This document shows positions 62,107 through 63,568 of a DNA stretch of 64,000 nt, one piece after another. Location: the NCBI GenBank assembly GCA_030651305.1, contig JAUSCI010000073.1, positions 5,155 through 69,154 on the forward strand, given 5' to 3'. The stretch's first letter is position 1; every line of letters starts with the position of its first letter. The notes beneath the pieces are model-generated. The model was not told where the DNA came from and searched no databases. It was given only the letters and a program-made list of their open reading frames with translations. The translations under genes and the position numbers were made by a program. This stretch comes from Sulfuritalea sp. GTDB lineage: Bacteria; Pseudomonadota; Gammaproteobacteria; Burkholderiales; Rhodocyclaceae.

Positions 62107-62802
62107 ATGGCCGACTCATCCCTTCGCGGAAACATCAAGCTCATAAATAGTTCAGCGCACATCTGCGTTTCCCGCCATGGCGAAACGGATTGGAACATTT
62201 CAGGGATTCTGCAAGGCTGGACCGATGTCCTGCTCAACGACCTGGGCCGCCGGCAGGCGTATGAACTCGCCGAGGCCGTTTCCTGTTGCCGTATCTCCAG
62301 CGTCTACTCAAGCCCCTTGCGGCGCTCGCTGGAAACGGCGGAGATCATCGCCCGCGAGTTGGGGCTTGATCCGCCGACATGCCATGAAGGCTTGAAGGAA
62401 AGGAATTTCGGAGTCATTCAGGGCATTCCGAAAGCCGAGATGAATCCAGAGTTCCTGGAGCAAATCGTGAAGCGGAATCCGGCGTGTTATTTCGATCACG
62501 GCGAGACCATGGAAGGATTTGCGAGCCGGGTACTCGATGCGATCGCGAGCATTGCCAAAAACCATCCTGGCGAGCGCGTGCTGGTGATTACGCATGGCTG
62601 GGTCATGGATGTCATCACCCGGCACATCCTGGGCCTGCCGCCCAGCGCAATCCTGAACATGAAGCGCAAGAACGGCGAATGCCTGTCGCTGAGCGCAACA
62701 GAAGATTCCATCCGCCTCCTGTCGGAGGACGGAGACCTGCCCGGCTTCGGTACGTGCAGTTGCTCGGAAAAGCAGCAACGAATCCTGTGCCGCTCGGCAT
62801 AG
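62107..62802 (+). CDS. Histidine phosphatase family protein
   Basis: RHGETDWN catalytic motif, SSPLRRS, LKERNFG and VITHG. Confidence 0.9.
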   Translation: MADSSLRGNIKLINSSAHICVSRHGETDWNISGILQGWTDVLLNDLGRRQAYELAEAVSCCRISSVYSSPLRRSLETAEIIARELGLDPPTCHEGLKERNFGVIQGIPKAEMNPEFLEQIVKRNPACYFDHGETMEGFASRVLDAIASIAKNHPGERVLVITHGWVMDVITRHILGLPPSAILNMKRKNGECLSLSATEDSIRLLSEDGDLPGFGTCSCSEKQQRILCRSA

Positions 62803-62859: not shown

Positions 62860-63156
62860 CTATCCGTGCAGTGACCTGAGCGCCAATTCCGGGGCCGTCG
62901 ATACGATCTTGAGTAATGCAGCAGCGGGTCCGGTCGGGTTGCGGCGGTGCTGTTCCCAATTCTGGAGCGTCTTGATGCTCACCCGCATCAGCTTGGCAAA
63001 ATCACTTTGCGACAGCCCGATTTGTTCCCGAACGGCTTTTACGTCCGGCGACATTATCTCGAAGCGGCGGGAAGCCTTGGCCTTGCCTTTGGAAATATCC
63101 CTGGCTTCCTTCAGGCTTTGCACCAAATCATCAAACAGTGCTTTTTCCATACTCAT
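62860..63156 (-). CDS. Xre/HTH antitoxin (HigA-2/NadS-like)
   Basis: LFDDLVQSLKEA...VKAVREQIGLSQSDFAKLMRVSIKTLQNWEQHRRNPTGPAAALL; ATGA overlap with the toxin stop. Confidence 0.88.
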   Translation of the reverse strand: MSMEKALFDDLVQSLKEARDISKGKAKASRRFEIMSPDVKAVREQIGLSQSDFAKLMRVSIKTLQNWEQHRRNPTGPAAALLKIVSTAPELALRSLHG

Positions 63157-63568
63157 AGCTCCTTAACGAATTCGCGCAGAATGGCTGTTTCCTTGTCGGT
63201 CAGATCATCCTTTTTCGACTTTGGATACGCCACCAGCATGTAATTCGGTTTCCAGATCATTCGTGACGCGAAGACGAGCCGCAGACAGTGCGAATAGCAC
63301 GGCAAGGTGAAGTCGACAAAGTCATGGATGGTCTGGAAGCAGAATAAATCAGGTGATTGTCCTTGACCCAGTAGTAAATCACCCGAATCCCGCCACTCTT
63401 GCCGCGTCCCTGCAAGCCATAGCGTAGCTTGCGAATACCGCCACCACCCTTGATGAGATCACCGCGCTCCGGATCTTCGACTATTTCGTTTTGAAGTTCC
63501 CTGAATTCATCGTCGGACAGCAACGATGTAATCAGGCGAGTGAAGGTTGGCGTTTCAATGAATTCCAT
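63153..63568 (-). pseudogene. RelE/HigB-2-type toxin gene split by a MITE
   Basis: The 5' part MEFIETPTF...GGIRKLRY...GKSGGIRVIYYWVKDNHLI and the 3' part YMLVAYPKSKKDDLTDKETAILREFVKEL* join in frame (103 aa) after removing 104 bp. Confidence 0.88.
63244..63344. mobile_element. 101-bp MITE with 24-bp imperfect terminal inverted repeats and TAA target duplication
   Basis: Left TTCGGTTTCCAGATCATTCGTGAC versus reverse-complemented right TTCTGCTTCCAGACCATCCATGAC (19/24); TAA at 63241-43 and 63345-47; no ORF inside. Confidence 0.85.

Follow-up and report, generated by a model that had tools for sequence, protein, structure and literature searches.

A Correia-Superfamily Miniature Transposon in a RelE/HigB-2 Toxin Gene of Sulfuritalea

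The interrupted toxin gene and its empty site

A stretch of 64,000 nucleotides of DNA from Sulfuritalea sp. (the window) contains a toxin–antitoxin pair in which 101 bp of unrelated sequence separate the start of the toxin gene from its end. What kind of sequence is this, what could have moved it and does it have a role of its own? The parts of the locus, in the coordinates of the window, are as follows.

62860..63156, minus strand: antitoxin gene, intact, 98 amino acids, XRE-type helix-turn-helix (HTH_3, 32.8 bits)
63153..63243, minus strand: 3' portion of the toxin gene, from the remainder of Y75 through L103 and the TGA stop, separated from its start
63241..63243: left copy of the target-site duplication, 3 bp (TAA on the plus strand, TTA on the gene strand)
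63244..63344, plus strand: Correia-superfamily miniature transposon, 101 bp; the foldable strand is the plus strand, with the core GCCGCAGACAGUGC..GCACGGCAAGG on it
63345..63347: right copy of the target-site duplication, 3 bp (TAA)
63345..63568, minus strand: 5' part of the RelE/HigB-2 toxin gene (ATG at 63568-63566; codons 1-74 complete, then bases 1 and 2 of codon 75)
63257..63568, minus strand: present toxin frame, 75 native residues and 28 element-derived residues, with its stop within the element

The original prediction had described a 101-bp insert with 24-bp ends (19/24 matching), a duplicated TAA and a 53-bp middle, and all of these are present. It had also held that removal of 104 bp would rebuild a toxin of 103 residues. 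Indeed, with 104 bp deleted the frame reads MEFIETPTF...DNHLIYMLVAYPKSKKDDL...VKEL, and its junction is identical to that of intact homologues. The restored frame matches the RelE family of Pfam (PF06296) with 41.7 bits (residues 8-102), as compared to 22.8 bits for the present frame and a cut-off of 27, and has 2120 homologues at E<=1e-10, the best of which are 92% and 91% identical over 100% of the length. The assignment of the gene to the RelE/HigB-2 type and its translational coupling to the antitoxin were likewise upheld. The toxin TGA overlaps the antitoxin ATG (ATGA), and the whole-length RelE match and the adjacent coupled helix-turn-helix gene fit a type II pair, a function that is predicted from the sequence. 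A toxin paired with a helix-turn-helix antitoxin is likewise present in intact loci. All nine aligned homologues were collinear across the junction, seven of them showing HLIYMLV and two HQIYMLV or HQIYLLV; uninterrupted LIYML prevails among them, as the original prediction had expected, and none of the relatives has the 104 bp as coding sequence.

The empty site itself was found in the DNA of a relative. No toxin homologue among the genus's species representatives exceeds 44% identity, and the site was taken from metagenome contigs instead: DNA from groundwater metagenomes that encodes an intact, 91%-identical toxin homologue reads CACCTGAT-TTA-CATGCTGG. On the gene strand the window has GAT TTA [101 bp] TTA CATG, as compared to GAT-TTA-CAT in the intact homologue, and the junction of its joined flanks without the element (the empty allele) is CACCTGATTTACATGCTGG. 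The element integrated at TTA (gene strand), within codons I74-Y75 of the 103-residue RelE/HigB-2 toxin gene, and integration copied those 3 bp on both sides.

The native residues lost from the toxin are its last 28, and 16 positions of this tail are invariant among close homologues; therefore, the toxin is very probably dead. As judged from the sequence, then, the insertion very probably inactivated the toxin and left the antitoxin gene unaffected. (An exact look-up found no identical record for the antitoxin protein.) [quoted passage not shown]

We also note that the neighborhood of the pair differs among loci. In intact homologous loci the toxin–antitoxin pair lies between metK and ahcY. 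Here, it is adjoined at 62107-62802 (plus strand) by a gene of the histidine-phosphatase superfamily (His_Phos_1, 170 bits), and therefore the pair itself has moved.

Kinship with the Correia elements of Neisseria

The insert was rightly described at the outset as non-autonomous, with inverted repeats at its ends and a duplicated target. It has no coding capacity, it occurs in several copies and it differs in presence and absence among relatives, all of which are properties of a MITE. The designation as a new MITE, in contrast, was not sustained: the element is homologous to the Correia element of Neisseria (CREE/NEMIS), as judged by a common directional core, a size of ~105 bp and full-length matches to a model of the family. 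Taken together, the evidence makes it highly likely that a non-autonomous, miniature inverted-repeat transposon belonging to the Correia superfamily has inserted in the toxin gene with a 3-bp duplication.

The genome has exactly six copies, five of them outside this locus. Five copies are 91-99% alike; the copy in the window is 96% identical to its nearest sister and has private substitutions. In a copy in contig 42, CTGG replaces CCAG in both arms, and the sixth copy, in contig 43, keeps its central 60 nt (~90%) but has arms that are different yet complementary. Of 40 relatives, 22 have 1-6 copies, and many of the matches are limited to the core. Thus, the middle is conserved and the ends are variable, the reverse of an ordinary MITE. 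Lengths in the family cluster at 101-105 nt.

Several copies depart from this form. The orthologue of the contig 43 copy in one species (L061, at G017:C108) has only the 5' arm and the core, its 3' arm being replaced by unrelated sequence; six other species have the full element. Four copies at separate loci in relatives and in Sulfuritalea sp. records (L018, L065, L070 and L138) have the same insert of ~70 extra nt, AAACACAGTTTCAGTGAAGGCTAATGC...GGCCGGAACTA, placed after ...GGCAAGGCGCAGTCGA and before the normal CAAAGTAT..., and recall the 153-157-bp long form of the Neisseria elements. A subclass in Polaromonas and relatives (L095, L110, L081, L140, L147 and L190) has the same core within longer arms, GAGAGC-GCTCACAAAACCC...GGGTTTTGTGAGC-GCTCTC; its members are ~112-116 nt long and have no evident TNA flanks, the same core apparently being joined to a different kind of end.

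The link to Neisseria emerged from a BLAST search of a plasmid collection with the element, which matched two N. gonorrhoeae chromosomes at 16-17 positions each. The retrieved locus is a textbook 105-bp Correia element, TATAGTGGATTAACAAAAATCAGGACAAGGCGACGAAGCCGCAGACAGTACAAATAGTACGGCAAGGCGAGGTAACGCC...CTACTATA. A covariance model (R1) built from 16 copies of this genus's type only found the copy in the window (63242-63346, plus strand, 85.4 bits, E 1.8e-18), matched the Correia locus end to end (35 bits, E 2e-5) and matched Neisseria-type genomes with E ~1e-13. Core identity with the Neisseria copy is 41/57 for the copy in the window and 50/58 for a second subclass (B). The core common to this branch and to Neisseria is GCCGCAGACAGU(G/A)C-loop-G(C/U)ACGGCAAGG, and the apical hairpin, GUGC/GCAC here versus GUAC/GUAC in the Neisseria element, differs by a compensated change.

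The family reaches well beyond these two groups. A scan for the exact pattern AGACAGTGC-N3-7-GCACGGCAAGG returned at least 119 loci, and the matches listed include Polaromonas, Acidovorax, Variovorax, Rhodoferax, Azonexus, Dechloromonas, Sulfuritalea, Methylotenera, Duganella, Herbaspirillum, Formivibrio, Rivihabitans and others. A scan of the order with the model found matches in 69 of 401 genomes and in 48 of the 168 genera sampled (about three in ten), and in one of the matching genera the sequences are classic Correia elements. In a phylum-wide sample, four genomes outside the order keep the core and compensated flanking helices. The core is thus spread through the Betaproteobacteria and a few other Proteobacteria. 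One of the four genomes, of the same phylum and a different class, outside the Betaproteobacteria (G625), has at least eight copies (L300 among them) of a ~125-nt variant with ends ATTCCAATTTGC...GCAAATTGGAAT, TCA flanks and the diverged core AGACAGTACATGTTGGTACGGTGAGG.

Correia elements were the first bacterial MITEs to be described, in 1988; those of Neisseria have promoters at their ends, and the long form has an IHF site. CREE are 104-108 or 153-157 bp long, have a conserved directional core and insert at TA and sometimes CA; they disrupt coding sequences, and RNase III cuts or binds transcribed copies (PMC2649163; PMC10969869). Their mobilizing mechanism has "not been determined" (PMC2649163; PMC10969869), and in the papers we searched they are treated as a feature of Neisseria (PMC2649163; PMC10969869). 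No paper on relatives of Correia elements outside Neisseria was found in the limited literature that we searched.

The element described here resembles the Neisseria elements in its homologous directional core (..GAAGCCGCAGACAGU(G/A)C-loop-G(C/U)ACGGCAAGGCGA..), in its size (101 bp plus the 3-bp duplication, against 104-108 bp for the short form; PMC2649163), in long terminal inverted repeats that form one hairpin and in lying between genes, and sometimes inside them, with no known mobilizer (PMC2649163). It differs in its arms (TTCGGTTTCCAGATC...), which bear no likeness to the 26-bp Correia repeat (TATAGTGGATTAA...), and there are several further end classes within the superfamily. Because its ends are not the Correia repeat, the element is a relative of the Correia element and not a Correia repeat in the narrow sense. 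It differs further in its copy number (6, versus >100 per Neisseria genome), in its host, a free-living betaproteobacterium, and in its duplication, which is related to that of Neisseria (short and ending in A, TA or CA there) but not identical to it: a 3-bp TNA here, as compared to a 2-bp TA in nine Neisseria copies. From this last difference it follows that the branches may have different movers and have only the core in common. The element is not of a new kind but forms a new branch within the Correia superfamily, one whose arms differ and whose duplication is of 3 bp.

Target duplication, a burst of copies and the search for a mover

The ends of the insert can also be read as a 2-bp TA duplication around 102 bp, an alternative that the original prediction had left standing. 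To define the duplication we compared the base triplets before TTCC and after GGAA in 52 independent dispersed loci, all with ends of the ATTCC type. The flanks were identical in 29 of the 52 (shuffle mean 14.2; none of 5000 shuffles reached 29), and where both flanks were TNA the middle base agreed in 29 of 34. Fresh insertions were found in a non-Neisseria genome of the order (G085, 4.6 Mb) that has undergone a burst: 104 + 99 perfect 23-nt end matches correspond to ~100 elements, and the copies (e.g., L241-L280) have a mean identity of 98.2%. In 40 of 44 burst copies the 3-nt flanks were identical, and the targets of the 44 were TTA (16), TAA (12), TGA (10) and TCA (6), so that the duplicated TNA ends in TA, AA, CA or GA. 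The burst flanks establish that the duplication is 3 bp, that the target is TNA and that fresh insertions have no orientation preference (22:22). The reading as TA plus 102 bp was rejected, since young copies never lack the first T of the left flank.

Old copies present a different picture. Among the old dispersed copies TTA or TCA flanks outnumber TAA or TGA flanks by 42 to 9, and to the right of the element coding sequence lies on the opposite strand in 78 cases versus 22. Survivors are thus placed right at the stop codon of a gene, a codon that the duplication restores, and their foldable strand is antisense to that gene. New copies insert either way round, and those that last are found at stop codons and in one orientation, which is how such elements become fixtures; the orientation bias must arise after insertion, by selection. 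The copy in the window is oriented to the toxin gene as the old copies are to theirs, a single case that is uninformative.

What enzyme might be responsible? We infer that the element is mobilized in trans by a cut-and-paste-like enzyme, which would make 3-bp staggered cuts at TNA and would insert the element with no preference for orientation. The original prediction had looked to an insertion sequence (IS) elsewhere in the genome, and the strongest alternative to the Correia reading is of this kind: an ordinary lineage-specific MITE, a deletion derivative of an IS resident in the genome or genus and moved by its transposase. Inverted ends and a 3-bp TNA duplication are indeed as in the IS1031 group of the IS5 family, which makes 3-bp TNA duplications, and the genome has two IS427/IS1031-like transposase genes. 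However, no IS with matching ends was found there. The two IS427/IS1031-like copies have ends (GAACTCATCCGTAAATA...) that are unrelated to the element, seven other DDE_Tnp_1 genes in the genome have no matching ends and no ends like those of the element were found in the genome beyond its six copies. Moreover, the conserved part of the element is its core and not its ends, the opposite of an IS-derived MITE, and this core is held in common with Neisseria Correia elements. Transposase families tell against the idea as well: PF13586 (IS427/IS1031-type) is absent from four copy-rich genomes, including that of the burst with its ~100 fresh copies, PF01609 is missing from one copy-rich genome, and three, a Neisseria among them, lack PF13358 (IS630-type). 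Thus, no single one of the three families is present throughout the copy-rich genomes, and we consider descent from a resident IS improbable.

The two IS427/IS1031-like elements of the genome (C45:78310-79240 and C33:96451-97396) are ~930-950 bp long with ends TTAGAACTCATCCGTAAATA..., and one of them has a TAG in its transposase frame.

Among the unpaired end matches of the burst genome there was no autonomous element; they are contig ends, have degenerate partner arms or have another IS inserted into an arm. The burst genome is the best place to seek the enzyme that moves Correia-like elements.

Other small elements share some of these features. Tourist-type MITEs (e.g., mPing, moved by PIF/Harbinger transposases) and the IS1031 group are alike in their 3-bp T-N/W-A duplication and, like the element, the MITEs are small and non-coding. 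They have no sequence relation to the element, however, and their ends are conserved and match a transposase-bearing partner, whereas here the ends vary and the core is conserved, and copy-rich genomes lack IS427/IS1031-type transposases. The ERIC (IRU) sequences of enterobacteria are imperfect palindromes of ~100-127 bp that are kept across genera, are found within transcribed spacers close to gene ends, are flanked by TA and have no known mobilizer (PMC3184786); they differ in having no sequence relation, in belonging to another bacterial order and in their reported flank, TA as opposed to TNA here. REPINs (paired REP sequences, mobilized by RAYT transposases) are likewise hairpin-forming, non-coding and intergenic, and in them, too, one folded strand matters. 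Yet REPINs have conserved ends and a variable middle, the reverse of what is seen here, and they have a RAYT gene and no target duplication, again the opposite.

The foldable strand and the conserved core

The element proper, with ends TTCCNTTTCC...GGAAANGGAA, consists of two arms and a core.

63244..63267, plus strand: left arm (terminal inverted repeat) TTCGGTTTCCAGATCATTCGTGAC, 24 nt
63268..63320, plus strand: directional core, 53 nt; helices GAC/GUC and GCC/GGU, internal loop GCAGACA/GGCAA, apical hairpin GUGC-GAAUA-GCAC
63283..63307, plus strand: nearly invariant center AGACAGTGC-GAATA-GCACGGCAAGG, the search pattern, invariant in a 60-sequence alignment
63321..63344, plus strand: right arm (terminal inverted repeat) GTCATGGATGGTCTGGAAGCAGAA, 24 nt

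Counted with one TAA base each, the arms (63243-63267 and 63321-63345) are 25 nt long, 80% complementary and separated by 53 nt, and the five mismatches between left and right arm are all G·U on the plus strand. The plus strand folds with -49.6 kcal/mol (z = -7.6; none of 200 shuffles was as stable), as compared to -27.2 kcal/mol for the opposite strand, which has the sense of the toxin mRNA. It is also the better folder in 123 of 147 copies. (Minimum-free-energy folding was not continued with long flanks, which produced spurious outer pairs. From 60 diverse copies aligned with MAFFT alone, RNAalifold recovered only the apical hairpin, with the arms out of register, and a covariance-model alignment was used instead.)

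In the covariance-model alignment of 103 distinct copies, standard pairs occupy 93.4% of cells, as compared to 64.8% for shuffles and 28-40% for slid controls; 30 of the 33 pairs have changes on both sides; and the covariation score is 0.62, as compared to 0.15 for shuffles and <0.1 for slid controls, all of these counts coming from an alignment that is fitted to the model and leans towards it. Complementary changes in the arms can also come about without selection on a fold, through template switching in a quasi-palindrome or because both ends must fit one transposase, and covariation alone is therefore no proof of a folded strand. Since the alignment leans to the model and complementary ends are expected of inverted-repeat transposons, the asymmetry between the strands weighs more. 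In gapless comparisons of the outer 20 bp of 118 distinct copies, arm mismatches on the plus strand were G·T in 183 cases versus A·C in 39, a ratio that overstates the number of independent events because copies are related by descent; taken copy by copy, 80 lean towards G·T and 12 the other way. The bias is present in each flanking transcription context and in both orientations relative to the neighboring gene (64:12 and 17:6). Strand-biased mutation was rejected as its source: if the coding or leading strand were deaminated, the bias would have the contrary sign, and the one observed tracks the polarity of the element in both orientations. In addition, orthologous copies across species of the genus show compensatory changes in place. 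Thus, one strand of the element, the plus strand, is kept foldable, as the asymmetry follows the element and not its surroundings and as changes at orthologous loci are compensated.

Could the sequence then be a fixed gene for a structured non-coding or regulatory RNA, not mobile, whose place in the toxin gene is ancestral? Its strong covariation, constant length and nearly invariant core would suit such a gene, as would a strand asymmetry tolerant of G·U and the retention of copies at orthologous loci across species. Against this stand the empty site in intact homologues, the duplicated 3-bp flanks and the ~100 nearly identical copies in one genome, and a search of Rfam with 63100-63500 found no family even at E<=10, only chance snoRNA matches. 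The target duplications and the burst refute a fixed RNA gene as the sole explanation, which we hold to be very unlikely, although a mobile element can still carry a functional fold.

We give scarcely any credence to the idea that the toxin continues to be produced, the insert being an intervening sequence that is excised from the mRNA or skipped: removal of 104 nt does restore the frame exactly, but exact restoration is expected of any insertion with a target duplication, there is no match to an intron or ribozyme family, the stable fold is on the strand opposite the toxin mRNA (-49.6 versus -27.2 kcal/mol) and sister copies lie outside genes, beside stop codons. An assembly artefact in which a repeat was wrongly joined into the toxin gene might be expected of a draft of 82 contigs with 3.4% estimated contamination, but it is just as hard to credit given the clean 3-bp duplication at both junctions, the private substitutions of a copy 96% identical to its nearest sister and a contig that extends on both sides.

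The reading of the insert as a mobile Correia-like element raises the matter of what its core does. The core is carried by miniature transposons with interchangeable arms, whose insertion is at TA in Neisseria and at TNA here, with other ends in other subclasses. The outer helix is long and free to vary in sequence as long as its two sides stay complementary, the core is asymmetric and nearly invariant, and the element has a length of ~101-103 nt. The core presumably serves either the spread of the element or an RNA or DNA function of the host. A more speculative proposal, which we put forward tentatively and regard as possible but somewhat doubtful, is that selection acts on the nearly invariant asymmetric core itself, as a module of which one strand folds, in the form of RNA or of single-stranded DNA. 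If so, movement could depend on the core, through an enzyme (perhaps host-encoded) that recognizes structure over end sequence, or the core could benefit the host once inserted. Either way, differences in copy number among hundreds of genomes could name the Correia mover through gene content. The main interest of the element lies in the reach of its family and in its strand-specific conserved core, which bear on two old questions about Correia elements, how they are moved and what the core does. Its free complementary arms, its one-strand fold, its different duplication and a burst of ~100 copies outside Neisseria provide comparative handles on the mover and on the role of the core.

Finally, we note that the arms are themselves insertion sites. 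In the burst genome, three different IS ends (...CCGGACGCTACTG, ...GACCGGACACTAGTG and ...GGTCGCTATGTTTAA) lie inside an element arm and abut one identical spot, TTTCTA^AATCATT (L227:1-150, L228:1-150, L229:1-140, L230:1-110, L233:380-460 and L234:290-427 of G085). REP and attC hairpins are preferred targets of IS110-family elements, and the hairpin arm of Correia-like elements seems to be a preferred target of other IS elements.
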